Assembly (NCBI GenBank): GCA_973895155.1
Contig: OZ316891.1
Span: 31,193,112 to 31,257,111, forward strand
DNA length: 64,000 nucleotides
Origin: Marsupella aquatica
Lineage: Eukaryota; Plantae; Marchantiophyta
Direction of reading: 5' to 3'
Shown here: positions 1 to 29,291 of the stretch, one piece after another
Numbering within the stretch: position 1 is the stretch's first letter
How the letters are laid out: the number at the start of each line of letters is the position of its first letter
Made by a program: the position numbers and the translations under genes
The notes under the pieces: generated by a model
Databases searched by the model: none
What the model saw: the letters and a program-made list of their open reading frames with translations, nothing else
Told to the model about the DNA's origin: nothing

Positions 1-336
1 CCCTACGATTCGGCGCCAACGAAGGAGGACATTATGACCAGTCATTTTTGGATACTCGGAGGCCAGCACACAATAATGGCGTACAAATTGCTGAGGATGG
101 ACGACAAAGTCAGCCAAGTTGTTCGGGATGCATGCGGTACAGTAGAAGCTGTAATGTTTTGGGCAACTCTCAACAACGACAATAATATTCATTTGATGGG
201 ACTATCGAAGGCTCTGAACCACTGTCATCAAACATCAATGGAAGAAGGACAGTTTCTCACCATTGTACGTCAGTGTCGTAATATCTGGAACTCATTTGGG
301 CGGCCTGGATCACATTATCGTCATCCAAATTGGAAG
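1..336 (+). other. ParB/Sulfiredoxin-like domain segment
   Basis: FWILGGQHTIMA resembles the ParB/Srx hhhGxHRxxA motif. It is followed by LSKALNHCHQTSMEE, resembling ParB ALxENxxRxxLxxxE. Motif-level recognition only. Confidence 0.45.
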
Positions 337-390
337 GTATATAAATAACCCTCTTCCCTAAACCCTAAACATTATCTTTTAAATGTTTTC

Positions 391-410
391 TCACGCGAAC
401 GGTCGCGTCA
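391..410. promoter_or_regulatory. Palindromic site 1, TCACGCG-AACGGT-CGCGTCA (intron 337-444)
   Basis: ACGCG-N6-CGCGT dyad read directly; function inferred. Confidence 0.7.
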
Positions 411-1212
411 ATCTTAGAATATTCATGTTTCCATTGTTTTTCAGGTATTTATGAGAGCTACGAGTTTTGTTTGCCCATGGGCTCAAATGGGGAAGAACGA
501 AATGATGAAATTTGGAGAATTGGCTCCATTTCTCTTTACAATGGAGGACAAAACATTCAAGAAGTGGATGGAGGTCTATGAACTATCAAGGACAGGAGAG
601 CTTGTAATTTACAACGGAATTTTACAGAGAGACACCGTCAAAATTGCGGATAATCCCTATGCTTACCATCTCCTTAAGAAGACGTTCCGTTCTTGTCAAG
701 GGTGCTCGGACTCGGTTCTTCAAAAGGCAGCGGAATATATGTTGAGCGGAAGACTGTCTATACTCAAAAACCGAAGCATCAAAGTGAAATCTGGGAAGGC
801 GAGGAAGTCCTCTGAGGCTCCGGTGTTGTCAACGACCAGCATGAGTTTGGAGCAATTTTGTATAAAGAAGAAGACGAAAGTTGAGTTTGAGATTTTGTTA
901 TTGAGTAAATTCAACGGGGATACATCCACCCGGACGGAGCTGAAAAGTCTGACAGATTCAGCGCGGAAATTGCGGGTCAACAGAATGATTGATCGCTTTA
1001 AGCTCGCCAAGATGGTGGTGAAGTAGTTGAGAGATGCGTTGAGTGGTTATCTGAAGAAGTGCTTAAATGTAAATATTAGTAATGATAATTTGTTGAAGGA
1101 GATCGACCCAATATTCTACAGGTTGGTGGAAGGAATACAGAAATCAGTTGATAGTCAAGGAAACCAACTAGTGCGGCCGGTCGGTGAGAGGCTGAAATTG
1201 CGATCCCTGTAG

Positions 1213-1885
1213 GATATACAAAATGTTGGGTTTGCAGACTGTATCATACGTGAAGACAAGAACCTTGCGAGCTTGATTTATTTTGATTCCTCATCAATGG
1301 GAGATTTGCGTCCGCCAAATTGCTCATTCTATGAGGGGTTATTTCGTGCTACTAGCGTGATAGGGGCAAAACCACACCATGTGGTTATTATTGTAGCCTC
1401 TCCCGTTGAGTCTTATTTAATCAAACGGGAATTAGGGAAGTACACACACTACGTTGCTATCGATAGCCATTATATTCAGAAGCGGCCAAAGGAGAAGAAG
1501 CTTATTGTAACCTACGCTTTTCATAGCTTGGCCTTCAGCACAATGGGCGATCCACAAGCCCTCGAGTTCCAGTTGGTCTCCAAATATCGGATTGATAAGA
1601 TAGCCAATTTTTAAGAGAGCGGCGAGTTCACGACACCTTCCCCAGAAAAGATACTTCCATTCTTTGAAAGTATTGTTAGTCAATTCGTCCAATGTGGGGA
1701 ATGGGCTATATGCTTCGACGAGGGAACGAACTTGATCCAGTGCCTAATGGTAAGTTTTGAGATTTATATTTTGGGGTTTCGATTTTAAGATTATTTGGAT
1801 TTTCATATTCTCAATTAATATTGTGAACTAATTTCGGCTTGTTTTACAGGATGCTGGATCCAATGTAAAATATTACTGCCCTGTG
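1213..1885 (+). other. Degenerate beta-class N4/N6 DNA methyltransferase-like domain
   Basis: ASLIYFDSSS sits at the position of motif IV (vDLIftDPPY). About 120 aa later, ILPFFESIVSQFVQCGEWAICFDEGTNLIQCLMDAGSNV resembles the motif X/I block (LxxLIxxxxxxGDxVLDxFxGSGT...A..xGR). The catalytic PPY is absent. Confidence 0.35.
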
Positions 1886-2207
1886 GCAACGCATAAGGAG
1901 TTGTCTTGTTTCTTGCAACACACCACGACGACAATTGATACAACGCTGTCATTGATTGACCCAATACGGGCTAGTATAGAAAAATGTATAGATAAATTAA
2001 TGAAGTACCGTCCATCCGTAACTGCTCTCAGGGCTGATGTCTTGGATGTCCTCCACAAACAACATATCCCAGATAATATTTGTAATCAATTATTGCAAGA
2101 GTATGCCCTCTCTGAAGATTCCAATCGATTGTACATTCGACCAACGGAGTACCCTCATGGGCCATTCCAAGGTAGGTTACTTTTGAACCCTCTTACTTTT
2201 TCTTGGG

Positions 2208-2227
2208 TCACGCGAACATGCGCGTGG
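2208..2227. promoter_or_regulatory. Palindromic site 2, TCACGCG-AACATG-CGCGTGG (intron 2172-2273)
   Basis: Same dyad. Confidence 0.7.
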
Positions 2228-2539
2228 ACATTCTCAACATTTCTTTCTAATCTAATGATCTGATTTTCTTCAGATCAAGTCAAACGCGGCTCCAATGTTG
2301 AGGATGCAGGGAGCAATGGTGATGCGGATGGTGAGGGGGAAGGAGACGCGGAAGGTGACGCGGATGGGGATGTCAATGACCAAGATCCAGAGTGGATGAC
2401 CGATACCCAGAACGATGTCGGATATTCCGACAAAAGCGAGGAAGAGAGTGACGGAGAGGAGATGAAGGACGCTGAGGACGCTGAGGAGGCTGAGGATGCT
2501 GAGGACGCTAAGGACTCTAATGAAGAGGCCACACAGGAG

Positions 2540-3160
2540 CCTCGTCATGAGGCGGACCAAGAGGAGGCGGCCTGGCAGGAGGACACCCGGCAGGAGGACG
2601 CCCGGCAGGAGGACACCCGGCAAGAGGCGGCCCGGAAAGAGGCGGCCTGGCAAGAGGCGGCCCGGAAGGAGGCGGCCCGGCAGGAGGCGGCCCGGCAGGA
2701 GGAGGCCTGACAGGAGGAGGCCCGACAGGAGGCTGCCCGGAAGGAGGAAGCCCGGCAGGAGGAGGCGACCCGGCAGGAGGAGGCCCGGCAAGAGGAGGCC
2801 CGACAAGAGGCGGCCCGACAAGAGGCAGCCCGACAAGAGGAGCTTCAAAAGAAGGAGGCTAAGAAGAAAAAGGCGGCAGCTAGAAAAGCAACTGCCGCAA
2901 AGAAGAAGGAAAAAACCGACACTGAGAAAGCCCAGGCGGAAAAAGCCCAGGCTGAAAAAGACAAGGCTGAGAAAGCCAAGGCTGAGAAAGCCCAGGCTGA
3001 AAAAGACCAGGCGGAGAAAGCCGAGGCTGAGAAAGCCGAGGCTGAGAAAGCCCAGGCTGAGAAAGCCCAGGCGGAGAAAGCCGAGGCCGAGAAAGCGGAG
3101 GCGGAGAAAGCGGAGGCGGAGAAAGCGGAGGCTGAGAAAGCCCAGGCTGAGAAAGCCCTT
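2540..3160 (+). repeat. Coding minisatellite, 15-bp units (QEEAR/QEAAR then EKAEA/EKAQA); predicted charged helix or coiled coil
   Basis: Repeated CAGGAGGAGGCCCGG and GAGAAAGCCCAGGCT units in the frame of the large gene. Confidence 0.9.
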
Positions 3161-4196
3161 TTAGTGACCAAGGAAAATAGGGCCAAGGCGGAGAGTGCCG
3201 AGGCAGAGAGGCTGCTGGCCGAGAGGATGGCGGACCAGAGCGAACAGACCGCAAGACCGGAGAGGGAGGAGGCGGAGGAGGCGCAAAAGGTTGATTCCGC
3301 AAGACTGGAGAGAGAAGATACCGCAAGACTGGAGAGGGTGAAGGCAGAGAAGGTAGAGGCAACGAGGAGGGAGGCCGAGAGGGCCAAGGATCTTTCGCTT
3401 ATTCCTGAAGCACAACGTCTACCGAATATAAAGCTGAATTTGAAGAAGCCTTCTTCACCCTCGGTTGCAGTTAAGAAGAAAATATTAGACTATTTTCTTC
3501 GGCCGGAGTTTGAGTTTAACGATCCACCCTTAAGAACGGTCTCGTTGGATGATTGGAATAAATATTCACCGGAGCAGCTCCGAGTCCAGGCTGTCTTGGC
3601 TTTGCAATATTGGAAGGGTCTTTTGATTACCGAGGAGAAGACTTCCACTGCATCCAGAATGGAGACAATCATCAATAATGTCTGATTTTCCGAGAATCGA
3701 GTGCAAGACCTAGGAATATCTCTGGCACCAGACTCGGCTCAAGTCGTTAAGAGACTAACAGCTGAGTTGACGCGACCGGGTTCGTGGTCTCGACCCCGAT
3801 ATACTGCAGAGGTCACTCGCGCGGAAATTGTGGCCCCAGATATTTTGGAATCGGATTCCCAGATTGTTGAATATTTAAATCAAATGCCACAACCATTCGA
3901 AGGTCTTCCCGCCTTATCGCTACAACCTTCGCAAACTGGTCCGTTGGAGCGATCACTGCGGTCTCGAGGAGGGCTTAAGGATGTTGTTGCGAAGGAGGCA
4001 CCCAAGAGATCAGCTGCGAAAAGGCCGGATCCACCCAATCCAAAGGTCATTCGCAAGCTATAAGCTTAAAGTTTCTATTACAGCTGTCATTATTTTATTA
4101 TTGATTTGTTATTGTTTCTGTTTTTTGAGGTAGAACCCTTAGGCTACAACCTCAGTACGTTATTTGAAGGCGTACTGAAATCTCTGTTTTTTGCAG

Positions 4197-4880
4197 TTTT
4201 TTGAAAATTTGGCTAGTCGAATAGATCAATGCCTTGATCCTTCTAAGGATATGGAAGAGCTATTGATCAAGTTCTTACAACACTCGATCAAGAGGAAACA
4301 TATGATGTGTCTGAGACCGCGCGAGTTGCTCACCGATGATATAATTAACGCTTATTTGAGTTTTCTCGAACTGATTCTCGATAGAGTTGGAAAGTCAGAC
4401 CTTGTCAAATTCTTCCAAACACACCATTTTGAGCTCCTCTCCATGGATCCTACCATTTTCGATGAGGAGAGAGCATCTTGGACAAAGGAGTTTCCGCTGG
4501 GAATCAGTGAATACGACAAACTGGTCTTTCCAGTACACAATGCCGTGAAAGAACATTGGTCATTGGTAGTTGTGTATCCGAAGGAGAAACGGCTCGAGTA
4601 CCTAGATTCCCTAGTTCATAATCGATAGAATCCTGGGGTGCTAGATATTGTTGGGAAGTATTACGCCGACGAAATTGGCTGGAGAACTGGTGTCAACTTG
4701 GATCTCTCAGGTTGGGAACGGATATATCGGAATGATATTCCTCACCAGAGTGACGGGCACAGTTGTGGTGTGTTTATCTTGAGATTCGCCAAGTGCTTGT
4801 GTCAAGGAAACGAAATTAATTTTGCCGCGGATCAAATTGAGAAATTCCATAGGGAGATAATCTTGTCGTTATTTGACATG
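4197..4880 (+). other. Ulp1/SENP (peptidase C48) SUMO-protease domain
   Basis: LTDDIINAY, EHWSL (His), YLDSL (Asp) and PHQSDGHSCGVF (Gln oxyanion + Cys) give an intact triad. One TAG at 4626. Confidence 0.9.
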
Positions 4881-5014
4881 GACTTCCGCAAGCCGACGTC
4901 CGCAAATAACCTAGTTACCGGGATCCGTGCTGCTATGATTGACATTGGCGGAATTGAAGTACTGAACGACCGTCTTGTACAGGTAATACACTTCATTTCA
5001 ATCTCTCTTTGTAG

Positions 5015-5034
5015 TCACGCGACTGTTCGCGTTA
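5015..5034. promoter_or_regulatory. Palindromic site 3, TCACGCG-ACTGTT-CGCGTTA (intron 4983-5066)
   Basis: Same dyad. Confidence 0.7.
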
Positions 5035-5243
5035 TAAACTTATTTTCATTTCTTAATGTTTTACAGAAACCTATCCCGAAACCCCCTGATCGAGTATCGA
5101 AGGCACCAATCCGGAAGTCCGGTGATCATCGTCTGGAGGCGGAAAACAAACAGACCATTCTAGTCTGTTCTCCAAACCCTGCGGCACAAAAGTCACAGGT
5201 ACAGATGGCGCCTAAACCATCGGCGCAGAAGTCACCGGTTTAG

Positions 5244-5971
5244 AAGAGACTTGTAATTTTTGATCTAAATCGGGTACTTATCTGGTCAGAGAAGATCATC
5301 CCTGGGATGCCCATTCGGTCAAGGGGGGTGAGACACATGTACAAGGTTATCTATCCAAGGCCTGATTTAATGGAATTTCTTCAGAAGATGGCAGATCTAT
5401 ACGACATTGCAATCTGGTCGTGCATGATGAAACGGAATATTCTATCTTGTTTAAGGCTGATACTTCGACCTGAAGTTTTGAAACGTATTAAATTTATATG
5501 GGGACAAGAATCAACTCGACCTATTGGGAAGAATAATAATGACATCCCCTTATTTGTCAAATGTCTCTCTGACATTGCCGCCGATATTAAAGATTACAAC
5601 ATCGAGAATGTCATTCTTATCGATGATGCTGCATATAAGACGACCCTTAATAACTTCTACTCATCGCTGTATCCCGATGCATATTCTGGGCTCGATGATG
5701 ACATATTTTTTAGAAAGAAACTATATCCATATCTATGCGACATGTCAATTGACAAGTTGACATTCCGCCGGCTCCTTAGTGACCATGGGATTCCAACGTT
5801 CTCTCGCAAGAATCTTGAGAAAGATTATATTGATAAGGCGAATCTTTGGAGGAGAAATGTGATCATTCGTAATCAGGGGAATAAAGACCATTTAGAAAAT
5901 TTTGACGAATATATGAAATACTTATCTGCCGAAAAAGACCGTGCTATAGAAGCCCGGGATAAGTCCGATAA
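5244..5971 (+). other. FCP1/NIF-like HAD phosphatase domain 1
   Basis: LVIFDLNRVL (motif I), RPDLMEFL, IAIWS, FIWGQE and VILIDD...K. Confidence 0.85.
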
Positions 5972-6029
5972 GTAAACATTTATTGTTTATTTTCAATTAT
6001 TATTTATAAATTGATTGAACTTTTGGGAG

Positions 6030-6049
6030 TGACGCGCCCGGTCGCGTGG
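6030..6049. promoter_or_regulatory. Palindromic site 4, TGACGCG-CCCGGT-CGCGTGG (intron starting 5972)
   Basis: Same dyad. Confidence 0.7.
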
Positions 6050-6111
6050 TTGTTTGCAATTGCATAATATGAGAATCGAATTGTTCATTTACAGGTGTCT
6101 AAGTGGAGCAG

Positions 6112-6796
6112 GTCGCGTCAACTTCTAGTTTTAGGACTGGAAAACTTCCTATGCTCTGTTTCAAAATATACTCCTCAGCTTAAGTCGACACCCGAAATTC
6201 GTATCGGATCTCTATGTGTCGTTCCGAGGCTGCATCTTCATGATCTTATAAAATTATGTTATGATCATTTTGATGTGATGATCTGGTCTATTCTCGACGA
6301 TAAACTGGTTTATCAGATACTTTCAGAAGTGTTGTCGAGCACCGACCTGTCGCAGCTGATATATGTGTTCACGCGGGATCATTGCTGGAATCTTGGTTAT
6401 GTGAAGAAAAATTATAAGACTGTTGTCTTCAAATCTATCGAGAGACTACGTGATATGTTTCAAGATTATCGACCAGAGAATATAATCCAGATTGATGCCT
6501 CTCCTTCCCATACATGCCACAGCGCTGTATGCGGATTATTGTTCGCTAAGTCGTTTCAAGGATCGTTGGATGATGTCTTTTTGAGGGATGACCTCATTCC
6601 ATATTTACGAAAGCTATGGGATTCAGGGCTTTGTCTTGCGTTCGCTAACAAGTTCGATTATCCCATCTGGTCGATTAGAAATCTACATCGAGATTGGGAT
6701 CTGAACGAGGATATATGGGAGCATCTGTACGTGCAGAGACATGCGGATCAAGTTCTTATCAAGCACTTCAACAGACGTCACTTATCAATGGCCAGA
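6112..6796 (+). other. FCP1/NIF-like HAD domain 2 (catalytic Asp lost)
   Basis: LLVLGLENFL, RLHLHDLI, VMIWS, NIIQIDAS and DDVFL...L.PYL. Confidence 0.8.
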
Positions 6797-6824
6797 GTAT
6801 AGAGGATATTTTCTCTGTAATATG

Positions 6825-6844
6825 TGACGCGACCATTCGCGTGA
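6825..6844. promoter_or_regulatory. Palindromic site 5, TGACGCG-ACCATT-CGCGTGA (intron 6797-6888)
   Basis: Same dyad. Confidence 0.7.
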
Positions 6845-6888
6845 CTACATCCATACGGGCTCATGCATCTTCTTGTGTTTCTCTACAG

Positions 6889-7578
6889 GAGATTCATTAC
6901 AGCAGAGAAAACGGGCTCATAGTTTTAGACGTGGAGCATCTACTCTGTTACACTGCACCGCATTCCCGACTGATGGCGGTCTCAACTGGAATTCGGATTG
7001 GGAATATATACATTTTTCCAAGGCCTCATCTTCACGAATTCTTGAGATTCTGTTTTGAGAAGTTTGATGTAGGAATCTGGTCCTCTCTTGGGAAGAGCCT
7101 TTTAGATCAGATTTTAGCATCTATTTTTACTGCAATGGAAATGGCCTCATTTAAGTATATTTGGGATGAGTCTCATTGTTACTTATGCGATTGGGTGACA
7201 TCAAATAAGCGGATATTTTTGAAGTGTTTTGAGAAGGTTGGAATTTATACGAAGGCGTATCTGCAGCAAAATATAATGCTTATCGATTCTGATGCATTTC
7301 ATGCTTGTTTAGATCTTGTTGTTGGATCATTATTTCCGCCCAAATATTTTGGGTCGGTCGACGACAGTTTCCTGATTAACTTGCTGATTCCGTATCTTAG
7401 CAAGCTAGCAAAATCTTGTGAGCCGCTTGTCATTGCCAATGGAAGAGATTATCCTGATTGGTCAGTTAAATCTATTTTTAGAGATTATGATTATAATCAT
7501 ACTATATGGGAAGACCCTGTGATTCAGAGGCATGGAGATAGATATCTAGTAGAGCAATTTAACAGACGCCCAATTTAG
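6889..7578 (+). other. FCP1/NIF-like HAD domain 3
   Basis: LIVLDVEHLL, RPHLHEFLRFCFEKFDVGIWSS, YIWDESHC and NIMLIDSD. Clear paralog of domain 2, sharing a C-terminal DYP.WS...RD..W......RH.D..L...FNRR segment. Confidence 0.85.
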
Positions 7579-7786
7579 GACGCTTCCGAAATAATAGTTG
7601 GCATGAGATCAGATTAATTTGTATTGTCGTTCTAGAAACGATTTGTAATCTCCCTATATACTGGTTATCATATATAAAGGATCTCAGAGATTTATTTCTC
7701 TTTTGTTATTATTTGCGTGAGCATGTCTCTTGGTCCCGTCAAGTTGGAGTGCGTAAAAAATCTTAGTTGCAGTCATTTTCAGGGTT

Positions 7787-7806
7787 TCACGCGCAATGAC
7801 GCGTCA
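7787..7806. promoter_or_regulatory. Palindromic site 6, TCACGCG-CAATGA-CGCGTCA (about 210 bp 3' of the stop codon)
   Basis: Same dyad. Confidence 0.7.
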
Positions 7807-8261
7807 TGTCGCCCCCTTTTCATATTAAAATAATAATATTTAGTGATTTTCGGAATTTCCAAAGTTCGGTTTTCCTTAAATTGGGGTTATTGACATATGA
7901 CAAATCACTTCCTTTTTTATTACATAGGGTCCAATTTCCCATTTGAGTGGCATATGCAATGATCATAAACTGGGCCATAAACAAAGCTCAAGGTATGTTA
8001 GACTTTAGAACATGTACTAGGGTTACAACTGTCAAAGCCTGTATTTAGGCATGTACAGTTGAATCAACATTTTCAAGGGCAATATCTCCTACAACTATCA
8101 AGGTTTTACTTTTGGATTCCGAGGAGGGTCAAGCAAGGTTGACAAAAAAGTTGCATATGATGAGGTTCTTTATTGAACGGGTGAATAAAGATTGTATCAC
8201 TTTTGTATTAATCTGTTTGACTTTTAATTTGCCTGAATTACATGTTTGCAATGCACAACCA

Positions 8262-8447
8262 TGTTTGCCTCACCTAAAAATCTTGCCCTCTCCTCGACAT
8301 CTTGCCCTCACCTCGACGTCTTGCCCTCTCCTCGACATCTTGCCCTCACCTCAAAATCTTGCCCTCTACTCGACATCTTGCCCTCACCTCCAAATCTTGC
8401 CCTCACTTCAACATCTTGCCCTCTCCTCGACATCTTGCCCTCACTCA
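8262..8447. repeat. Minisatellite, 19-bp unit (ATCTTGCCCTCWCCTCGAC), about 9-10 copies
   Basis: Directly visible tandem units. Confidence 0.9.
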
Positions 8448-8789
8448 AAGTCTTTCGTGCAACGCACGGGCATGGGGCTATACATCAATAATACCCTCAT
8501 ACATTATCTTACTTGCCTGGTTAGCATATTGACATTTGACGAGTGCGAGCTAAATTATAATTATAGTTCAATATCTATGCATGACACAGAGGATGAGAGG
8601 ATGCTGGTGGGACAGAATATGTTGCATAAAAGGTGTTGCAAAATCGATGTTGGATTAAAAAAAAGCCCCTATGTAGAAGATCACATTTTGCTATAAAGGT
8701 TGATACAGATCAAAGATCATTGTGTAAAAGATCAAAGGTCATTGTGTAAAAGATGTGATAATGCTCGATGTTGTGTTTAGGTGTGTAAA

Positions 8790-9015
8790 AGGTATTGCTG
8801 CATAAAAGATGTCATTGTCTGGGTCAGTGTGGAAAACAAGCATTGCTGCATAAAAGATGTCATTGCCCTGGTCAGTGTGCAAAGACTACAATGCATAAAA
8901 GAGGTTTCATGTTGTGCGGGTCAGTGTGCAAAACAAGCATTGCTGCATAAAAGATGTCATTGCCCTGGTCAGTGTGCAAAGACTACAATGCATAAAAGAG
9001 GTTTCGTGTTGTGCA
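8790..9015. repeat. Tandem repeat, ~48-bp subunits forming a ~97-bp higher-order unit
   Basis: Repeated CATTGCTGCATAAAAGATGTCATTG...GGTCAGTGTGCAAA. Confidence 0.8.
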
Positions 9016-9210
9016 AACGAATCATTGCACAAAATAAATTTAGGAAATAATAAACACGTTTGGATTACTTTGTTATATAATTATTAAATCATAAAGAAAG
9101 ATTTTTTATTACTTCATTTTGATTACTTTGCCCTTAAAACACACCTGCCCATATAAAGTCTGATTCCCTCTCTCAATACTCCTCATTCCTTCCACTGGTG
9201 AACACACTCT

Positions 9211-9407
9211 TGCCATAAAATGTGGAGCACTCACCACTTTTTGTGGAGCTTGCCATAAAATGCAGAGCACTCATCACTTTTTGTGGAGCTCAAGCCCATT
9301 CTTGAATTTGTACACCTTACAATGAGAGTTATGGGTTGCCTGTAACTACTCACCACTTTTTGTGGAGCTCAAGCCCATTCTTGAACTTGTACACCTTACA
9401 ATGAGAT
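9211..9407. repeat. Short imperfect tandem duplications
   Basis: TGCCATAAAATG..GAGCACTCA.CACTTTTTGTGGAGCT twice, and CTCAAGCCCATTCTTGAA.TTGTACACCTTACAATGAGA twice. Confidence 0.75.
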
Positions 9408-10144
9408 ACCCCGTAGCTCTTTATAGATGCACTCGTGCTTTAAAGAGATTAAAATACTGCAACTGCTTTGACTATGGTTATTAATGTTAACTTGTCACCT
9501 ACATGGCACTTCCCAATTGGAAGTATTTCCAGTCCAGTCTGTGTAGGGTTTAGATCTGGGGTTAGGGAGCTCTCGCCTATTTTCCACATCTTAACTAAAA
9601 ACATCCAAATGCGCATCTTGTTGGGTCTCTGTGGTCTTCTAGGGGTCTTTTGCCTTTTGATCATGTCTCCCGGTTTGGTAGTTGCTGTCCTTTTTTGGCA
9701 GTGTGATGTATAAATGCGCATCTTTTGAACGGGAGCTTTCCAGACACGGGCAACAACACAGGAGAATGATGGCTTGGGTTTAGGGAGCCCCTAAACCCCT
9801 TTCGCTTTTGGCCATTTCTGAACAGGATTTCTCTCAGAAGAAACGAAGATTGCACATCCGAAACCAAGCACCCACAAACATCGTGCCTCAGCTGTCTGTC
9901 GGCTCCTCCCTGTCTGTTGTCTGTAGGTATGTTTGTGCATTCACTCAGAGCACCTTCTTACGAGCATCCAAAGAACCATGTGCATTTCACTAAAGAGCAC
10001 CTTCTCACGAGCATCCAAAGAAGACAGTGCATTCACTTAGAGCACCTTCTTACGAGCATCCAAAGAACAGAGCAGCTTCAGATGGCCCAAGGAGATGAAG
10101 TGGAGCACCAACCAGCACAAACCGACCGCAGGCGCAGAATGCGG

Positions 10145-13731: not shown

Positions 13732-16700
13732 TCACTTCCCTGATGTGTGCTTGCCATCTTGGAACTGGGCGTTACTCGATGATCTAAAAGTTTGCAAGAA
13801 TGCTTTAGCTTTTGCCAGTTCATCCCTTTTTCGCCACTTGTCCCACTTGTGCTCTGCTGCAAGGATCTCTATCACACGAGGTAATGCCCTCCCGGCAGCA
13901 TCTGTATCGAGAAAAGCCAACCTGGAGCGACGTGCAATGAAGTCTACGGCAGACTCACAGTATTCATTCCGTGCGCAGTATGCAACCTCTGCCTCCAAGA
14001 CTGGATAACCATGAGCTAGCCTCTTGCCCAGGCCTTCCATCTGCTCATCACCCACATTAAACGTTTCTTATTAACATCAATGAACCCATTTGAATTTCTT
14101 TGCTGATTGTCCACCTAAAACTGAGTTTGACCCGAACATGTGCCATTCGCTATCATGTGAGAAAATCGTCGAAAGTGCTTTGGTTCGATGAAAGACTGGA
14201 CAATAAGGACCCTGGTGAAACATTCGAATGCAACATAAATCCGGAGGAGATCCATCCAGCCTGAGACGAAGTAAATAATTCAGATCCAAAATTTATGATA
14301 TTAAAGGGTGCATTTTCGCAAAGGAAACAGCGCGGAAGGTGTACTGCGAACCTGTGCAATTATAGCAACACGTTGTGCCATTCCTCCGTATGAGTGAACC
14401 AGATGCTTGGCCGCAGCTGTGTCAAATGCTCCAGGGACTAATTTTCCTCCATAAGTTTGCTTCATGCGCACATACTGTTGCGTGAGGACCGTGAAGGAAG
14501 ATGGCTCATATCCGTCAGCTCCAATCACTGCCAAGTTCTCTGTAATGCAGGGATTGGAGGGCTGCAGTGACCCAACCCTTATTGCTGCATTGACAGCATC
14601 TTCTGCCATACTGCACAGTCAAAAACATTTTAGTGCAGCTTAGCGTCAAATCCGCTCATTAAATCAATCTACAATAACTCAACGTGCTAAATTCGGAAAC
14701 CGTATTCAGGTAAAAACGATAATGATCTGTGCGATGGATGCTACAGTAAGCTAGGGCTCTACTAGAAAGAATAATCATTCTTTGGACCCAAGACGTACAA
14801 AAGCTAGCCAAGCTGCAAAGCGCAATTATCGAGAAAAGTCCGAAAGGTATGTGCTGAACCTTCTATATGTGGTCCACTTCCCACCAGTAACAGTTACTAA
14901 ATCATGCTCATCTGTGACTATCACATGATCCCGGGATATACTAGCAGTATCCTTGGCTGTCGGATCACTGGCCAGAGGTCGTATTCCACTCCAAGCTGAA
15001 AGTACATCTGACCGCCGAACCTGGTTCAAGCTGACAATTAGACGACTACAGCGGCATCGTAGCACAAGCACTGAAATGAACCCATCACAACAATTAAGGT
15101 GGATATCCCATTCCATATGAGAAACACATATTCCATATTCAAAGAATTTTCAGAAACAGTGGCAACGCAGGTCTACCTCTACGTTCACACAGTAGAGAAA
15201 ACCTACCTTGATGCACAAGTAGTCACTAATAGCATCCAAAATAAATCGGATTTCGTCCTCATGGGGCTCGGGTAAATGGGTTATAGGAGTGACAGAATCT
15301 GTGGTCCCTGCCACTGTCCTGCCCATCCAAGGCAGCATGAAAACAACCCTGCCATCTTTGGTCTTAGGTACGATGAGACCCATTTCCTCTGGCGAATAGT
15401 AGTCCGGAAGGACGATATGTATACCGCTGCTTGGGGATATCATAGGCTTTGCTTTTCTATCAGCTAATTGCCTCACGGAATCGCAAAAAGGTCCTGCTGC
15501 ATTCACGACCACTTTGGCATACACATCAAATTCTTTCCCTGTCAGGTTGTTGCGTACCCTGGCCCCTGTTACTTTTTCAGTGACATCATCTTTGTGGATA
15601 GTAAGAACTTCAGCATGGTTGAGAACTGCTGCCCCTGATAGCGCTGCTGTGCACGCCAACGCTATGTTTAGACGGGAGTCATTCATCTGTCCGTCATAGT
15701 AAACAAGGGTGCCCTTCAAAGATTTCCCGTCTGGATTTCCCTTCGACAGCGTCGGAAAGAGCTCCAGCGACTGCTGAGCTGAGAAGAAGCGAGACATGTG
15801 AAGCATGTGGCGGCCAGCCACCAAATCATAGAGCTTGAAGCCTGCCCAGAAATATGGAATCTGCCACCAGTCATAGCATGGTGTCATGGTAGGAAGTGGA
15901 TTGCACAGATGTGGCGCATTATGCAGTATGTTGGCTCTTTCTTCAAGTGCATGGAATACTAGTTTCAGTTGTCCATAGTCCAGCTGAAACACAGCTTTTT
16001 CCAAATACCTGACTCCTGTTTCAAGCAGAATCCAGAAGTGATTTCAGAAAATGATTTCTTCGTCAACAAAAGTTCCAATTTTTCACCTAAATTGAATATT
16101 TCCAACCAAACTCATCCAAAGATTTAACATTGCAAGACTCACATCTAGTACACCAAACATGGACCAAGAACGCTCTGTTGAGTGAGTAGATCACTGGAAA
16201 GGTGCAGTCGAAATCAATTGCTGATTTATATCATTAAGCATTAACCGGCCCAACCTGCTAATTGAAAGGCTGAAAGAATGGCACAACGTCTGATTTGGGA
16301 ACCTCACAACATGGTGTTTTATTTTAGGTTGTCCCTTTGGAGGAAGGTTAAAATTCAGAGGGTAACGATAAACAACGTCTCCAATCGAAGTATGCTTTGA
16401 ACTACCAACAATGTAAAAAGCAGAGTCAAAGAAGGGCCCAATCTTCCCACCAACGATACGAAGATGAAAGCCAACCAGAAACGTAGGATTCAAACGGCAC
16501 TGTCATTCTATAGACAAAATGAAAGGAAAGAAATTGAGAGGGAGAGTTGAATGGTTGTGACTAAGAAGAGAGTTTTCCAACCTCCATGTACCAGTTTTGT
16601 AGACCGCGAGGAGGTTCCCGCAGAAAAATCTTCACGCTCAACCAGCCCAACTCGAAGACCGCGGGTGGCCGCATCTAACGCCACTCCACAACCCGTAGCT

Positions 16701-18412: not shown

Positions 18413-18878
18413 CAGTGGACTCTCGCTAAGTGCACGCACTCTCTGGGGACGACGAATCTGGTGTGCACTAAACCAGGTGTTGCATGTCTTGATAAGCGCA
18501 CATTCTGTAACAAGTGCTCTAATAGATAAGTGTGCTTCATTTAGATTCCTTTGTTAAATGTGTATGCATTATGGACCCCTCTTGTCAGTGAGTAGTCAGT
18601 CTCGTACCTGGTATCCCTGCCCTAATTTTGTGCCCACACTCTTTACGTGCATTCTATTCTCTACTAAGAATGGGTTTTACATATAAGCACATATAAACAC
18701 TTATCAAGGGTAAGCACTTATAAAGTTGTCATTTAGAAAAATGATTTCAGCCCTGTGTGAGCTTAGAATATATGCTTAAAAAAGTTCTTATCCCATATAC
18801 AAAAATGGGAAGAACAAGATGACATGCACTAATCAAGGATAAGTGCTTCTGGAGTGTGCACTTAGCAAGAGTTCACTG
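18413..18878. mobile_element. Non-autonomous Tc1/mariner-pogo-type MITE (466 bp)
   Basis: TIRs CAGTGGACTCTCGCTAAGTGCAC and GTGCACTTAGCAAGAGTTCACTG, flanked by TA on both sides (18411-18412, 18879-18880). Confidence 0.85.
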
Positions 18879-20377
18879 TAGTCTATATTGCTAAACATAC
18901 TCTCAAAAATTATTTACATAGTCTCATGGACCCTACACAGAAACTGCATAATTGGGATGGACTGATTAGAAATATTTCCTGTGACATTGTGAGTAAAATG
19001 GGGTCCATCTGAGTTACAAAAATCAATGGGAGCATTTGACAAACCTAGAGATCTATCTGGGCTTCATTTTCTTGTCACAAAACATGGTATACTTTATAAT
19101 ACAATATTGCAGTTATTTTTATTTTATTTACAAATATGACACAATGTTTGTATTTGGCTACTTTGGTTACACTCCTGAACTTGTAGTCCATATTCAAAAC
19201 CATGGTGGATTTGAAAATACTCTGGGCAGTCATGACAGTGAACGTGTGAACAGGCTAAACAACACAGTTTTGAATATGTGGTGGACAATTTGGTTTTAGA
19301 AAGTAGCTTCTGGGGCTATTTTGCTACCACATTGCAATGCTGATATTCAGCCAAAAATCAGGTTGTCCTCCATTTAGTATATGGGTTTGCTTAACTGGAG
19401 ATGGAATGCTAACCCCCTCCAACTGTACCTTCACCTTGCACCATGTTTGGACTATTATCCATGGCTAAAAACTATCACATTTTGGTCTCCCTCATTTCCC
19501 CCACTTTTACCATTGGAGGAGGTTAGTCTGGACAAATTATGAGCCTCCATGTATCCCCAGAGCAATTATGTGTCATTGAGTGTTACTTTAGTCTGGGTAA
19601 ACTAACTCACATACAAATGGGGGTGATCTGATAATTAAATTAGTTTGGGGGACAGAAAAACAAATAACAGTTTGCAGAAATATGGTTCTGTGATTTTACA
19701 ATAAATATGAGAAACTTGGGATTTTTTCAGAGAGATATACTTAGTGGACCTCCAAATGCAACTTTCTCTCTTAATGGACCAAAAGTTTCCCACGCCCTCC
19801 CAATGGACCCCAAAGTTTAGATTCTCTCCCAATGGACCTCCGGGCCCACTCCGTACAGGCATGTTCTTATGAAACAGCTTACCACGCAGTTCGAGTCCAC
19901 TGCGTACCCTGTGGAAACCGTGGTTGGTCATGTGTAGTCGGCCGTCAATAACGTCGCAGTCCACAAGCGTCGTAGCCCTGGCGGCAATCGAGCTCCGCTC
20001 AGCACCATGGCAGTTTTTGTGAATACAGTATGACTATTGTATTCAAAACAATAATTGAACGAGTTTGCGGTGGCATTGGAGCCTTCGTGCCCGGCCTCAC
20101 AGGATTTCAAAATACATTGTCACTTTAGTGTTCAAGATACAAAGGAAATAGTTTATTGGAGCTTGCAACAGCCGGCAAGCCGTACCTCCCCGAACCTCCT
20201 TGCTTTTATGAAGACATTGTCCATAATGTGTACAAATCTTAAAGGAATAATTTTCAAAATTCAAATGTGCCCGCCCTTTATGGAACCCTTTCGGAACCTG
20301 TTTTGTTGTCATTTGGTTTGTTTCTCGTCATTTTCTCGCATTTTCTCGTGTTGCTGGTTCCGGCTCGTGTTCCTGCT

Positions 20378-21016
20378 ATGTCGACCCTTGAGGATGTGCG
20401 AATTGCAATGAAGGAGCGGCCAGACAGCATCATTGGGCCAATCCCGGTATATGTTTGTAATTTTCACTCTGATTTCCCATGGCCCAGAAAGTTCACTTAC
20501 AGAGGTTGCAGGCATGGCATTGGCGGTGGTTTGGTTTGTGGGAAGTCCATTGAGGCAGCGGAGCAATGCAAGCACGACCCACTGGTAGACGGTAACAATT
20601 GTCATTTGTATAGGTTCGATATTTGCATGGTGGATGCATATGAGAACACTGGGCCATTCAAGGCCACTATCTTTCAAGCTACATGAGAGCTTGTGGACAT
20701 GACTGTTGATGAATTTGCAGAGTATGGTACCATTCGCCAACTTGAAACAATGCACCAGCAAATTTCTCAGATCCCATACTGTCTAGTGTGGATTAAGGCA
20801 GGACGACACTCTGTTGTTGTGAATAAGCTTGTTGTTGAGATGTGGCGATGCCCTCCTAGTCGTGCCCCTGTGAGAACAAGAGTTGAGAAAGTGATCAGCA
20901 GAAGCAATCTTGTGGGTGCTGATGTCCTTATGCAGCAGTTGGAGGTGACTGCAACAATGATTTCAAAGTTTCGCTTGTCCACCATCGAATCCGCCGAAGA
21001 CTCGAAAGGCAAATGA
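20378..21016 (+). pseudogene. MULE passenger: RPA70 C-terminal-like OB-fold/zinc-ribbon protein with one in-frame TGA (20684)
   Basis: FTYRGC...CGKSI....C...YRFDICMVD....KATIFQAT*ELVDMTVDEF resembles the Rep_fac-A_C pattern (Y.aC..C.Kk..C..y.....l.D.t......F...ae.llg.t..el). Confidence 0.6.
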
Positions 21017-21810
21017 TAGGGATGTTGTGTCATGCAGAATACGTTTTGGTTGTTGTATTCTTGTTATTTCTTGAAGAGATTGGTGGTTTGGTAAGATGAT
21101 TTAGTGTCATTTAGCATTCTCCGTAGCTTCAATGATGAACAATTCGCATTTCAGATGAGTATTGGGGGAGCCCTTCAGTTGCATAATTTTGAAAACCTGT
21201 ATTGTGTAATGGGTATTTTCTCTTGCGTTATGAATAGAATACAACATTGTTTATGTATTCTCTGATCTATCTATTATGTAACACATTGCAACATTCTTTT
21301 GTATGTTGAGAATACAACACAGAATACTACATGGTGTATGTATACTTTGAATTCTATTTCATGTAACACGTCTAGGTTGCGCCTGCTTTGCTACTTCATT
21401 GCTAGGGTTTAGGGTGCACAATCAGTTGCGCGTATGCCTTATCTTTGGCGAGGGTTTAGGATTTTAGAGAGATGGCGGCCGATGAGCGAGGAGGATTGTT
21501 TTAGGGAGGGATTCCACTATTGGAGCTCGCAAATCGATCGATCGAAGGCCTGATGTGCTGGTGAAGGGGGATTGCGCGCGATTGGGAGCAATTGGGAGCG
21601 ATCGATTTAGGGAGCTGGTCATGGGGGACTGCGCGCGATTGGGAGTGAGTGAGCATAGAGCGATTCAGGGAGCTGGTGCTGGTGAAGGGGGATTGTGAAA
21701 TCACTTGGGATTGCCTGTCGGGTGATTGGAGTGACTGTCGAGCGATTCAAGGAGATCAAGGAGTGAACGTTGGGCAGGTCGGTTGGGTTTTGAACCCAAC
21801 CAAGGTAGTC

Positions 21811-24751
21811 ATGGTGCCCCATGCCAAGAAACTAACATTGGCAAAGGAGGGACAGCATTTTCGATACCGTGTAGGCGAGCAGGGGAACCACGTATTCAAG
21901 TGTATATGCGCCGGTCATGCTCCTCGCGGTTTCTCTTCGTTCAAGTCATTTCAGACTCACTTGAGCACCAAGCATGGCCAAAAACTCCCTGCTGATTTGT
22001 TGGAGCCAGGCCTGCCTTGGTTGAGTTCAAAACTCAACACCTCTCGTCCCGCCAAGAAACCACGGAAATGCAGCAACAACAGTGGTAAGAAGACGGAAGG
22101 TGCGTCATGGATTCGATTACGGTCGACTGCCAAGCTAAGATGGCAAATGACGAAGCAGCGCAAAAAGAATCAACTGAAGGTGGACTATTGCGTTTCAGTT
22201 CTGGGGAAGAAGGAGCCATCGGTTCCATCGAAATCGGTGCTTGTTCGTCTCATTAAGGTCTACCACATTCGTCCGAAAGAGAAGAGTGGTTGGGGCTGCT
22301 TGGTAGACGATAGTTTCTTTGAGATGTTACAGGAGCATGTCAGCTCTGCTCCTATCACCAATGCTGTGTATCACTGGGCCGAGCATGTGCAGCAATTGCC
22401 TGCTCAGTTGCCTGTGGATCGAAAGTTGCATGCTTTGCAGGTTGATTGTCGACTATTACAGGTACTTTTTCCGCTGAGAGATGTCCCTGCCCAGTCTGTC
22501 CAACCTTCAGCAGGTGAGGAGAGTAGAGAACTCATTGTTGCAGACGCCTTGGAGTTTTTGAGGAAGAAAAGGGAAAGTCTGTTGTGGAAAGTCGGAGCAA
22601 AAGAAATCGATTTTGACCATGCCTATCCAGACTATGTGAAGTGGAAAAAGGAGCAGAAGCATCTGTCAATTGCCACAGCCGGTCGAAATTGTGTGAAAGA
22701 TTACACAAGTGATGGCATGTCACAAGAAGAAGCAGAGGCAGCGGTACGTAACACAATCATTTTACTTGCCTTTGCATTGTTGTGTATACTTCGCGCACAA
22801 TGTTTACACCAATTTTCATATTGCAGGCTGGAGTTCACGAAGTGTGGGTTGATACCTCAGATGAGGAGGGGTACGAGCCCACCCCTGACAAGTGGGGATT
22901 AGATTATCATGAGTCCTCTGATGAAGAAGACGCAGCAGAGGTATAGTTCCTCTTCCCCTTCTGCCAATGATTTTTTATGAATCTGCATAGTTTGACAACA
23001 TTGACCGGAATGTCTACGAAACTTCAGGTTCCTTTGAATGACGAAGCTCAAGCCAAAGAATCAGGGAAGAAAGGAAAGCCACGCAGGAAGCCAAACGAAC
23101 CCAAGAAGCAGCCTCCACAGAAAATTACGCCTCCTGTTGACACTCAGGAAGCCGATGAGGTAAATTTGCACTTCCAATGTAATTATCCCATTTGTATACC
23201 ATGATATCAATGTATGCACGATGGTTTAGTGCTCTTAGCCCGAGTATTGCTTTTTCAGGTTCCTCCCAACAAAGGAGCCGAAGCCAACCAATCAAAGCGG
23301 AAAACAAAAAGAACCAAGAAATCTGTAGAGCCACCACCGAACGGCAACACCACCCTTCCCGTAGATTCTTAGCAAGCTGACCAGGTAACGTTTACAGATG
23401 AAAGTTCTTTGCAAAATGTGTAAATAGTGTGGAGAACGTTTCCTGTTTTATCAACACTGCAAGTTCAAGAGTAGGACATTATGTTGAATACCATGATGTT
23501 AATGTATACTCACTATTTGAATGCGCCTGTACCCCGAGTATTGCATTTTAGGATCCTGAATCCCATGAAGGACCTACACCCGAACAATCTGTAGAGCCAC
23601 CACCGAACGGAAACACCACCCTTCCCGTAGATTCTCAGCAAGCTGACCAGGTAATGTTTACAGATGAAAGTTCTTTGCAACATGTGTAAATAGTGTGGAG
23701 AACGTTTCCTATTTTATCAACACTGCAAGTTCAAGAGTAGGACACCAATCTTATGTTGTATACCATGATGTTAATGTATACTTACTGTTTGAATGTGCCT
23801 GTACTCCGAGTACTGCATTTTAGGTTCCTGAATCCCATGAAGGACCTACACCCGAACAATCTAAGAGGAAATCAAAGAGAACCAAGAAATCTGTACAACC
23901 ACAGAAGCCCGCGCCTGAGGTAAGCGTGTTTTCAATAGGCCAAGGAGGAACATTCCAACATAGACAGTGGTAAAAATGTATTCTATGTGTACTTATTTGA
24001 TTTAAACATGCAATCACCTTAGTTTGCAATGACAGGGACCAAAGGAAGGAGAGCAAGCAACGGCACCCCCGGAGACAGAAAAAAGTGAACCTAGACGTTC
24101 AAAGAGGAAGCAAACAACTGCTCCCACCGAAGAGAAAATTGCCCAAACAAAAAGAAAGACCAGAACTAAAACCAAGGTAAGTACAAATCATTGTGTACTA
24201 TGTGGCCATATTGTATAGGGACTAAACACATGATTCGCTTGATACTGATTTCAGCCTTACAATTGCAGGATTCATCTAAACAAGTCCAGGATGTCAATGC
24301 ACAACCAGCACCAGAGGGAGGCAACACTATTGAAACTCAGGGTACTGCCCTTCCACCGAATGTGTCTGCAATCCCATCAGGAGAGGTGACTGCACCGGTA
24401 GGGAGCACACCTTATGTAATTGACTTTGGTGGCATGATTGATTGGTAAGATGTGTTTCTTTGCTGATTGCTTTCATATGTGAATTTGCAGGAGTACCAGA
24501 AACCACCTGATGTGCAACCAGACCCATATGCAAGTAGACGTCGGAGAAAATTGACAGTTCGTGGGCCATTGGGCAAGGCGCAAAGTGAATTTGTAATCCC
24601 GGGGTCTGTACCACAAGAGGTCACTGTGCAGGAGGACGATATTTTGGATTCCTTGCACGCATCACAAATTCTCCAAGATTGTAGCCAGGCTGATGTTACC
24701 TCTTTTCACAAGGCAATCGATAAAATGATTAATAATGTGGATGAAGTTTAG
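21811..24751 (+). CDS. MULE accessory gene, multi-exon: N-terminal C2H2-like zinc finger and K/E/P-rich low-complexity C-terminus; function unknown
   Basis: Long first exon containing FKCICAGHAPRGFSSFKSFQTHLSTKH, then about 8 short GT-AG-bounded exons ending at TAG 24749-24751. Exon boundaries are approximate. Confidence 0.6.
23205..23865 (+). repeat. Tandem duplication (~270-bp period) of exon+intron units inside the accessory gene
   Basis: ATCTGTAGAGCCACCACCGAACGG...GCTGACCAGGTAA...GTAGGACA at ~23320 and ~23586; CCTGAATCCCATGAAGGACCTACACCCGAACAATCT at ~23555 and ~23827. Confidence 0.85.
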
Positions 24752-24999
24752 GGTACAATTAGCAATATCTGAGGGATAGTCTAGGGTACCTAGCCCTGTT
24801 TTGTCACCAATGTGTTCATGATAATAAATATGAAATGTTCCTGCATTTCTTGCTCTCTTTGAAGACTATATAACATGATCTGTTCCAAAAATGGTCATAG
24901 TAGATCTATGGCTGGGATACAATATGTATGTTGTATTCACATTTTCTCTGACTTTACGACGAAGATGCCCCACTGTCGAATCCTTCCCACTGACTAAGG

Positions 25000-25650
25000 C
25001 GCCCAAATGGACAAAAACTACGGAATTTGAACACAGAAAACCCTTTTTCATGTATACGATCTGGACGATGTATTCAGATTTCACACTTGGAAAAAAAATG
25101 TCCCTCCGACTTTACGAACACGCCCTCCGCCGAAGCCTGCCCAAATGGACAAAACCTATGGAGTCTCAACATAGAGATACATATTTCATGTACACACTTT
25201 GGACATTGTATTCAGATTTCACACTTGGAAGCAAAAAATTGTCCCTCCGACTTTACGAACACGCCCTCCGCCGATGCCTGCCCAAATGGACAAAACCTAT
25301 GGAGTCTCAATATAGAAATACATGTATACACTTTGGACATTGTATTCATATCACACTTGGAAATAAAAATTGTCCCTCCGACTTTCCGAACACGGCCTCC
25401 GCCGAAGCCTGCCCAAATGGACAAAACCTATGGAGTCTCAACATAGAAATACATTTTTCATGTATACACTTTGGACATTGTATTCAGATTTCACACTTGG
25501 AAAAAAATATTGTCCCTAGCCCTCCGACTTTACGAACACGGCCTCCGCCGAAGCCTGCCCAAATGGACAAAACCTATGGAGTTTCAACATAGAAATACCT
25601 TTTTCACGTATACACTTTTCACGTTGTATTCATAATTCACAGTTACAAAA
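25000..25650. repeat. Tandem array, ~130-146-bp unit, about 4.5 copies, between the convergent 3' ends of the MULE genes
   Basis: GCCCAAATGGACAAAAC recurs at ~25000, 25139, 25280, 25411 and 25557, with a shared TCCGACTTT.CGAACACG.CCTCCGCCGA.GCCT. Confidence 0.92.
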
Positions 25651-25929
25651 AAATTCATTCACTTGAACTTTACAAAGACAGTCGGGCCTAAATGGAAAAA
25701 AAGCATGTCATATTCAACACTTTAATAATCATACAGCACATGCACCATGGAAGGCGTACTCAGACCTAACAAATGCAAATAAAAGGCTTCACTCCTCATT
25801 GGATGGAATACAACATCCACTTTGTAACAATTTGAACTCATTCAAGGTAGTGTTTAGGTCCATGCACAAATGTGCCCTACTACCATCTAACTTCCCAATA
25901 TAGTGAATAGTAGACTGTGATGTATATGT

Positions 25930-28900: not shown

Positions 28901-29291
28901 GCAATGTCTGAGACCTTGGTCCTTTCGATCGTCTTCTACTCCAATGGCCATATCTGCTATGAAACTCATGCTCACCTTCTGACTCTTCATCCTCTTCCTC
29001 AAATTGAAGCTGCCACTGGTTTGGTTCCTCCGTAGCATGTGAACGAATGTTGTCATTGTCACCTTGATCATCACAAGCTGCCTCATCATCGACTACCTGT
29101 TTCGATCTAGCAATCTTTCCAAACCTGCATACACGAATACATCAATTTGCAAACGTCTTGTATCTGGACATGGCTCGACCATTCATCACAGCCAGAGAAT
29201 CTAGGCACCGATCAAACTCTTCAAAGCTATTGAAGTGCTCTCCCAACTTGATTCGAGCAGCCTCTGCTGCCACTGTAACAGAGGAAGACAT
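25930..29291 (-). CDS. MuDR/MULE DDE transposase with SWIM and CCHC zinc knuckle (spliced; start may lie further upstream, near 29613)
   Basis: LGEHFNSFEEF N-terminal motif, VSLDACH, CLDGNS, ENWLWFL, IMSDRQKGL, HAQCTNHL, TSNPAEQANS (catalytic E), SWIM CTC...WPCQH, and CSRCGKVGHNKRSC. Confidence 0.92.

Follow-up and report, generated by a model that had tools for sequence, protein, structure and literature searches.

The 64,000-nucleotide stretch of the liverwort Marsupella aquatica analyzed here (hereafter the window; contig OZ316891.1 of GenBank assembly GCA_973895155.1, positions 31,193,112 to 31,257,111 of the forward strand) opens with a large, intron-containing cargo gene of a mobile element that is likely a Helitron. 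Five of the seven introns of this gene hold a single copy each of the palindrome ACGCG-N6-CGCGT, and a sixth copy lies past its stop codon. Judged from the sequence, this palindromic feature is real and under selection. The gene product is predicted to join a likely ParB-like N-terminus to an amino-methyltransferase fold, a Ulp1 protease domain for the small ubiquitin-like modifier (SUMO) and three FCP1-like domains. Whether this protein binds the palindromes in its own gene, marks copies of the element as self and prevents their silencing is, in our estimate, an even call.

Palindromic sites in and behind the cargo gene

An exact-motif scan for ACGCG-N6-CGCGT yielded six matches in the 64-kb window, with cores starting at positions 393, 2210, 5017, 6032, 6827 and 7789. 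The 20-bp sites start two bases earlier (391 for the first) owing to the TS prefix.

Site 1: 391-410, core 393-408, in intron 1 (337-444), exact-motif scan
Site 2: 2208-2227, core 2210-2225, in intron 3 (2172-2273), exact-motif scan
Site 3: 5015-5034, core 5017-5032, in intron 5 (4983-5066), exact-motif scan
Site 4: 6030-6049, core 6032-6047, in intron 6, 47 nt 5' of the acceptor at 6094
Site 5: 6825-6844, core 6827-6842, in intron 7 (6797-6888), 46 nt 5' of the acceptor
Site 6: 7787-7806, core 7789-7804, 3' of the gene
Degenerate exonic site: 3768-3787, left half intact, two mismatches in the right arm, weak

The six sites of the first-pass annotation, five of them in separate introns and one past the stop, were recovered exactly; 100 dinucleotide shuffles of the sequence gave a mean of 0.01 sites and a maximum of 1. 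Its claim that complete sites are absent outside the element also held, as the remaining 55.5 kb of the window contain no ACGCG-N6-CGCGT core, and within the window the motif is thus specific to the element (6 sites in 8.5 kb versus 0 in 55.5 kb). Allowing one mismatch added no site in the window, and of all spacer lengths from 0 to 20 only a length of 6 gave matches. TSACGCG half-sites number 14 in the 8.5-kb element and 3 in the other 55.5 kb. The degenerate exonic site announced at 3768 is present (with its core at 3770), but the window holds six matches with two mismatches, this one included, and it is weak evidence because four of the six lie outside the element.

Introns 1, 3, 5, 6 and 7 carry one site each, and site 6 lies approximately 175 nt 3' of the TAA of the last frame (7612-7614). 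The introns account for 760 of the 7614 bases, or 10% of the gene span, which gives a probability of about 1e-5 that five of five sites would be intronic. All five lie 34-48 nt upstream of the splice acceptor. The surrounding intron sequence had been described as unrelated from site to site, and it is: the 30-nt flanks are mutually no more similar than shuffled DNA (identity 0.34 upstream and 0.30 downstream versus 0.31). In intron 4, which has no site, a different inverted repeat was seen at 4152-4178, its 8-bp arms enclosing an 11-base spacer.

Half-site structure

When the 12 half-sites are read on one strand, T is found in 10/12 at the first position and S in 11/12 at the second, followed by ACGCG, by A or C in 11/12, by A or C in 12/12 and by C in 7/12, which gives the consensus TSACGCGMMC. 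The spacer is therefore always 6 bp long, as was first noted, while its sequence does not vary freely, being biased to A or C at the first two half-site positions. The base directly outside the arms is C or G in 11 of the 12 half-sites and yet is unpaired across the dyad in five of the six sites; the second spacer base, A or C in all 12, is unpaired in four of the six. Degenerate positions that are kept in each half-site without pairing fit two subunits reading double-stranded DNA rather than a stem. The sites thus behave, as far as their sequences tell, like selected binding sites of a dimeric protein on double-stranded DNA and not like an RNA hairpin, which agrees with the initial reading of a dyad with a fixed spacer as a site of the dimeric-protein type.

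Selection on the sites

Exons 7 and 8 encode duplicated FCP1-like domains with 38% identity and a shared starting register. The introns immediately upstream of them, introns 6 and 7, have their sites 47 and 46 nt upstream of the splice acceptor. Between these two introns, the arms plus outer bases are identical in 14/14 columns, and the spacer in 3/6, whereas the flanks match in only 9/24 and 14/40 columns (35-38%). Arms that were kept while flanks drifted point to selection in this one pair: a CpG-rich word was kept although its surroundings drifted, which argues for selection whether the word was inherited by both introns or gained twice.

Other copies of the element were compared using contigs from four public runs (three organisms; runs X1, X3, X4 and X5) aligned to positions 1-10000 of the window, and the comparison is based on the 40 best-supported of 1003 differences. 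None of these 40 falls in a site arm, which says little. In the spacer of site 3, base 5024 is T in the window and in run X5, and C, making a CpG, in every aligned contig of X1, X3 and X4.

Structural differences between copies also touch site-bearing introns. The segment 386-419, which holds site 1, is tandemly duplicated in one X4 contig, and another contig realigns from position 386 after a dissimilar upstream part of intron 1. In intron 7, positions 6798-6873 are replaced by 105 other letters in contigs of X3 and X4, which represent a diverged subfamily.

The cargo gene

The gene spans 2283 codons within the window, and its 5' start lies to the left. Eight in-frame stops (five TAG, two TGA and one TAA) indicate that this copy is dead. 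Introns were placed by continuity of the three-frame translation together with GT-AG signals, giving seven introns of 84-151 nt.

Introns 1-7: 337-444, 1750-1849, 2172-2273, 4046-4196, 4983-5066, 5972-6094 and 6797-6888, plus strand, GT-AG, placed by frame
Exon 1 (part in view): 1-336, plus strand, second half of the ParB-like domain, GGQH motif
Exon 2: 445-1749, plus strand, helical region followed by the greater part of a beta-class amino-methyltransferase fold that lacks DPPY/SPPY; 3 stops
Exon 3: 1850-2171, plus strand, probably the end of the methyltransferase fold plus linker, on the basis of frame continuity
Exon 4: 2274-4045, plus strand, acidic tract, two charged-repeat arrays with 15-bp (5-residue) units, and a linker; 2 stops
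Exon 5: 4197-4982, plus strand, Ulp1 (Peptidase_C48) SUMO-protease domain, Pfam E 2e-20; 1 stop
Exon 6: 5067-5971, plus strand, first FCP1/NIF-like domain, DxDxT broken, Pfam E 1.4e-11; 1 stop
Exon 7: 6095-6796, plus strand, second FCP1/NIF-like domain, motif broken, Pfam E 7.9e-10
Exon 8: 6889-7614, plus strand, third FCP1/NIF-like domain, motif broken, Pfam E 2.1e-14; stops at 7576 and 7612

Intron 1 is backed by the homologues P0012, P0013, P0017 and P0028, which read continuously across its position, and several homologues terminate at the start of intron 2. Exon 3 had no family match at E < 0.1 in Pfam, PHROGs or NCBIfam.

The N-terminal region was compared with several collections. Exon 1 matched ParBc_2 of Pfam with an E-value of 0.058, a score comparable to those of Peptidase_C12 (0.011) and LAB_N (0.062), and a ParB-like family of PHROGs with 0.35. 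In Atlas, ParB_N (35% of members) and DUF3723 appeared at 0.91, behind unnamed clusters at 0.93. Exon 1 is 42% identical to protein P0039 of Calypogeia, residues 228-358 of which match another ParB-like PHROG (E 0.13). From these several weak but agreeing signals, the N-terminus is likely ParB-like. The ParB-like product first proposed thus keeps its family signals, which agree with each other, albeit all below threshold and with a profile comparison to KorB that was not significant (see below). At the place of GxxR, the CTP (cytidine triphosphate)-binding motif of bacterial ParB, both the window and P0039 have GGQH.

For exon 2, 21 relatives were found among 1.84 billion representative sequences, 20 of these 21 were looked up, and the 6 with a species name all come from the liverwort Calypogeia fissa. 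No longer homologue was found among 5146 candidates. An AlphaFold model of the relative P0011, based on a 20-row alignment, had a mean predicted local distance difference test score (pLDDT) of 75. Its residues 250-442 matched CcrM with Z 10.0 (root-mean-square deviation 3.7, 171 residues aligned), and further matches were M.MboII (Z 9.8), M.BceJIV (9.3), M.RsrI (9.2) and M.PvuII (8.8). With the whole model, Z >= 8 was reached by 11 of 48,161 chains, beta-class enzymes ranking at the top and keeping their order in two further fold comparisons; Foldseek gave no match at E 0.001. From the model of this homologue, the exon 2 region is predicted to adopt the fold of beta-class N4-cytosine/N6-adenine (N4C/N6A) methyltransferases. 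The catalytic motif (D/N/S)PP(Y/F/W) occurs in none of the 22 aligned rows. Nine of the rows extend across its position: 8 of them read D-S/C/G/A/T-S/T/M, the ninth lacks the D, and the window reads DSSS. As the catalytic motif is absent, the methyltransferase domain is probably inactive. Active self-methylation by the cargo protein was rejected as a candidate mechanism on the same ground.

The Ulp1 domain of exon 5 has its His, Asp and Cys motifs, as seen by eye. The DxDxT motif is broken in all three FCP1-like domains, which are likely inactive.

A number of further searches were negative. A single-sequence fold model of P0009 reached a pLDDT of 30, and its methyltransferase part gave only unrelated rows below 0.9 in Atlas. 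Sequence searches of solved structures, phage genomes and NCBIfam gave nothing relevant. An FCP1-like alignment gave 200 pattern matches in metagenomes, none confirmed, and a degenerate pattern from exon 2 gave 0; the 116 and 13 pattern matches in viral contigs were likewise not confirmed.

The carrier element

Bases 1-8480 of the window are a high-copy repeat. In X1, X3 and X4, the summed depth of the aligned contigs, which is not a copy number, is approximately 70- to 100-fold higher over 1-8684 than in the bin that follows (6284 versus 94 in X1), the drop falling between bins 8351-8684 and 8685-9018. Loose ends of contigs lie just past 8480, namely at least 34 in X3, 33 in X4 and 4 in X5; their consensus continues with G and then T before the sequences diverge (agreement 0.44-0.57). 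The description of the gene as part of a transposon is borne out by this depth drop and these loose ends, which place it in a high-copy mobile element.

Helitron-type 3' end: 8456-8480, plus strand, hairpin at 8456-8468 and CTA at 8478-8480
Subterminal repeat array: 8268-8444, plus strand, 19-bp unit, 9.3 copies

After the same hairpin, other copies read CTAG and then T, while the window copy reads CTA and then T. The gene and the Helitron-type end have a similar repeat depth in X1. Sequence features of the end thus make the carrier likely a Helitron with a 3' end of the HLE1 type, inserted before a T; judging from the loose ends listed, it is improbable that the gene belongs to a different element nested inside the Helitron. 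No RepHel transposase was found in 1-8480, and the 5' part of the element lies outside the window, in which blastn and tblastx found no second copy of the element. At 8017-8684 the depth in X3 and X4 is approximately three times that of the gene, which suggests short non-autonomous elements sharing the Helitron-type end and the 19-bp repeats.

CpG content and traces of methylation

The observed/expected ratio of CpG (CpG o/e) is 0.89 in the cargo exons, compared with 0.56 in the rest of the window and 0.32 in the transposase frame of a Mutator-like element (MULE) further downstream. The high value of the cargo exons fits a long-term escape from methylation. The first-pass annotation had drawn attention to the intactness of all 24 CpGs in the site cores. 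They are indeed intact, the cores being exact, but this is weak evidence because the sites were chosen for being perfect: with a decay of 3-8% per C, all core CpGs would survive with a probability of 0.02-0.23. The figure of 8% derives from 2 TGA among 26 CGA plus TGA codons and assumes that the TGA stops arose from CGA. Seventeen of the 40 best-supported differences between copies are A-for-G or T-for-C, of which 4 are in CG, 4 in CHG and 9 in CHH context.

A possible self-recognition system and its alternatives

The proposal that the cargo protein recognizes its own gene, which we consider balanced between right and wrong, would work as follows. The ParB-like cargo protein would bind as a dimer, with one subunit on each TSACGCGMMC half-site, and the loaded protein would cover CpG-rich DNA and oppose silencing. 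The Ulp1 part might remove SUMO from host silencing proteins, and the decoy domains together with Ulp1 could keep the element active. Introns and the 3' spacer would host the sites because a 20-bp word costs too much in coding DNA. The window copy is dead, with its eight stops, and would receive the protein in trans, if at all. A wider version is possible but doubtful: unrelated classes of eukaryotic transposons would have repeatedly adopted bacterial ParB/parS-like self-recognition, in the present case with a ParB-type clamp loading at each intron palindrome, spreading, and bringing a SUMO protease and decoy methyltransferase and CTD (C-terminal domain)-phosphatase domains against silencing. 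On that view plants would possess, besides VANC and independently of it, another anti-silencing system that is sequence-specific.

Several observations weigh against self-recognition with protection from silencing. Introns 2 and 4 lack a site. All ParB signals are weak (E 0.058, 0.35 and 0.13; 0.91 in Atlas), and the Atlas rows at 0.91 share 129 and 154 features, whereas true members of a family typically share 170. A comparison of profiles against 34 KorB proteins did not reach significance (probability 0.14, with 0.30 for the control), the profiles being shallow (effective number of sequences 1.3 and 2.8). No DNA-binding helix-turn-helix was identified in the protein, the helical region having been barely probed by the fold searches; ParB or helix-turn-helix chains were absent from the best 50 rows of each search, which were dominated by the methyltransferase domain. 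The ParB-like, Ulp1 and FCP1-like parts are predicted from the gene structure to form one protein, yet intron 6 (5972-6094) has a phase mismatch as drawn, with an alternative acceptor at 6111 that is in frame. The host Kelch gene in the window has a CpG o/e of 0.81, which is likewise high, and the introns minus their sites have a value of only 0.45 (7 CpGs). Transitions at CG, CHG and CHH, including the one in the spacer of site 3 (5024), indicate that the window copy was not kept free of methylation after its death.

We regard it as unlikely that the same protein serves another purpose, such as KorB-like autorepression that limits copy number, or a parS-like role in which Helitron circles are held, paired or tethered. 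The sites lie within the gene itself, in an operator-like placement, and Helitrons transpose via circular intermediates, which suit parS-like handling. The lost catalytic motif, which makes marking by methylation unlikely (0 of 22 rows, 9 covering the place), and the decay of the window copy at methylation contexts also favor such a purpose, whereas the CpG o/e of the cargo exons, set against that of the MULE frame, speaks for long-term methylation escape, and the Ulp1 and FCP1-like domains suggest a role in chromatin or transcription and not in partition. Nor does the window show a ParA-like partner, but it does not extend into the 5' part of the element. It is also improbable that the element acquired the sites as intronic enhancers or boundary marks read by a host factor, be it a CGCG-box binder like CAMTA or another protein that reads CpG, with the ParB-like cargo being unrelated to them. 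ACGCG is compatible with the CGCG-box consensus, the same selection would be expected on sites read by the host, and no DNA-binding domain was identified in the cargo protein by the KorB comparison. However, the other 55.5 kb, host genes included, have no full site, and a strict inverted arrangement with a 6-base spacer is not known as a feature of CGCG boxes.

Two further explanations do without a reader on DNA, and both are very unlikely. Should the palindromes form hairpins in the pre-mRNA that affect splicing or feed small-RNA pathways, their position 34-48 nt before the acceptor in five cases would be understandable, as would the fold z-scores of -1.65 to -2.22 in four of the five site-bearing introns; the fifth intron scores +0.26, though, and the downstream site, which is not intronic at all, -0.42. 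Rfam had no match in 1-9000, and the conserved degenerate positions flanking the arms do not pair, for which reason an RNA hairpin was rejected as the chief role. If the sites were neutral leftovers of intron duplication or of a tiny inserted element, this would accord with the paralogy of introns 6 and 7, whose two sites can share descent, and with the tandem duplication around site 1 in the X4 contig. Against such relics, the flanks resemble each other no better than shuffled DNA does, so that a tiny inserted element was rejected as the origin of the sites, and a CpG-rich word should decay faster than its flanks, the reverse of what is seen in introns 6 and 7.

Comparison with known systems

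Transposon cargo combining ParB-like and methyltransferase domains, with proposed self-binding, is already known from algae. Sola1-1_Ec32 of Ectocarpus carries an 1104-aa protein with a ParB-like and an N4C/N6A methyltransferase domain, proposed to bind and modify its own element; the consulted part of this paper refers to Iyer 2011 for green algae (PMC12477816). It thus resembles the present gene in joining a ParB-like and a prokaryote-type amino-methyltransferase domain in transposon cargo, self-binding being only proposed. Here, in contrast, the host is a land plant, the element has a Helitron-type end, the catalytic motif is lost, and Ulp1 and three FCP1-like domains are added. Candidate intronic sites are also defined, while the consulted part of the Ectocarpus paper names none (PMC12477816). 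In red algae, PAG3 of a Plavaka (EnSpm/CACTA) element has a ParB-like domain with an HHpred E-value of 0.29 (10.1101/2025.02.11.637652). As described in the text available, PAG3 shares with the present case a ParB-like cargo, nearby inverted repeats, proposed binding and modification of its own element and weak ParB evidence, and differs in its tandem repeat arrays beside the gene, a 2-oxoglutarate (2OG) oxygenase partner and a methylase in a separate gene, PAG2. The sites described here are single and dispersed over unrelated introns.

The precedent cited at the outset, that VANDAL elements of Arabidopsis place VANC target motifs in their own noncoding DNA, is as claimed: VANC21 binds motifs in VANDAL21 introns and noncoding DNA and causes hypomethylation (PMC5735166). 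In the parts consulted, both systems have an element-specific short motif in transposon introns or noncoding DNA and a cargo protein with repeat-rich variable regions. VANC21, for which binding and hypomethylation have been demonstrated, recognizes a nonpalindromic 9-mer that a Mutator-like element carries in dense tandem arrays, all in one orientation, unlike the sites described here. No Pfam match indicating VANC homology was found in the cargo gene.

Bacterial ParB/parS and KorB/OB systems pair a ParB-type protein with a palindromic site. The present case, with a likely ParB-like protein and a palindromic core of approximately 16 bp, resembles these and VirB/virS; it differs from bacterial ParB in lacking the GxxR arginine (GGQH) and in being eukaryotic, intron-containing and multidomain. 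VirB of Shigella, acting with virS, is a ParB-type anti-silencer and, according to the passages available, an example of a ParB fold able to oppose silencing (PMC10770331, PMC10653881).

The carrier agrees with descriptions of HLE1 Helitrons, which have a 3' hairpin followed by CTRR and insert before T, and Helitron-like elements stably carry 20 domains, Peptidase_C48 being one of them (PMC11417382). All of these traits, including the Peptidase_C48 cargo, recur here; in the main text of that paper, the words "ParB" and "methyltransferase" do not occur. Another beta-class amino-methyltransferase of a liverwort, MpDN4MT1 of Marchantia, is an active host N4-cytosine methyltransferase that keeps TSPPY, unlike the present domain, and the available text has no occurrence of "ParB" or "Helitron" (10.1101/2021.02.12.428880). 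Adenine methyltransferases fused to ParB and a helix-turn-helix were described in chlorophytes and chytrids, with no mention of Helitrons in the portion consulted (Iyer et al. 2016, PMC4738411). In the accessible part of a 2026 preprint about regulators of transposons, neither Helitrons nor palindromes come up (10.64898/2026.08.24.746577), and the Apopellia genome paper, in the part at hand, merely counts Helitrons (PMC12885004). The literature search, which covered partial texts and neither the supplements of the HELIANO, Bostrychia and Ectocarpus papers nor most subscription papers, retrieved no work that describes ParB-like cargo in Helitrons or land plants, or combines such cargo with intronic sites, and none on the motif. 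What is new here is the land-plant carrier with a Helitron-type end, the loss of the catalytic motif together with the presence of Ulp1 and FCP1-like domains, and a defined intronic site with internal evidence of conservation.

Other features of the window

Downstream of the element, the window holds a MULE, repeats and two host-like frames.

15150-16043, minus strand: host-like frame of an FAD (flavin adenine dinucleotide)-dependent oxidoreductase (DAO)
18464-18858 and 54793-55370: related dispersed repeats, 80-91% alike in parts
19730-30369: MULE with 80-nt terminal inverted repeats (98%)
25001-25653: 131/146-bp tandem array in the MULE
26159-29092, minus strand: MULE and SWIM frames of this element
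27820-29383: perfect inverted repeat whose 36-nt arms are separated by 1492 nt, one of them within the MULE transposase frame
33202-33368: short element, probably a miniature inverted-repeat transposable element (MITE), whose 27-nt inverted ends are related to those of the MULE
57493-58806, plus strand: host-like Kelch-repeat frame

Significance

The algal proposals for ParB-type cargo came without a defined site. The window supplies one, TSACGCGMMC half-sites around a 6-base spacer, together with evidence of selection and a candidate reader, and it does so in a land-plant lineage that has experimentally tractable relatives. If the proposed self-recognition is true, it would offer a programmable, element-specific chromatin tool and would trace how bacterial partition proteins came to take part in the epigenetic conflicts of eukaryotes.

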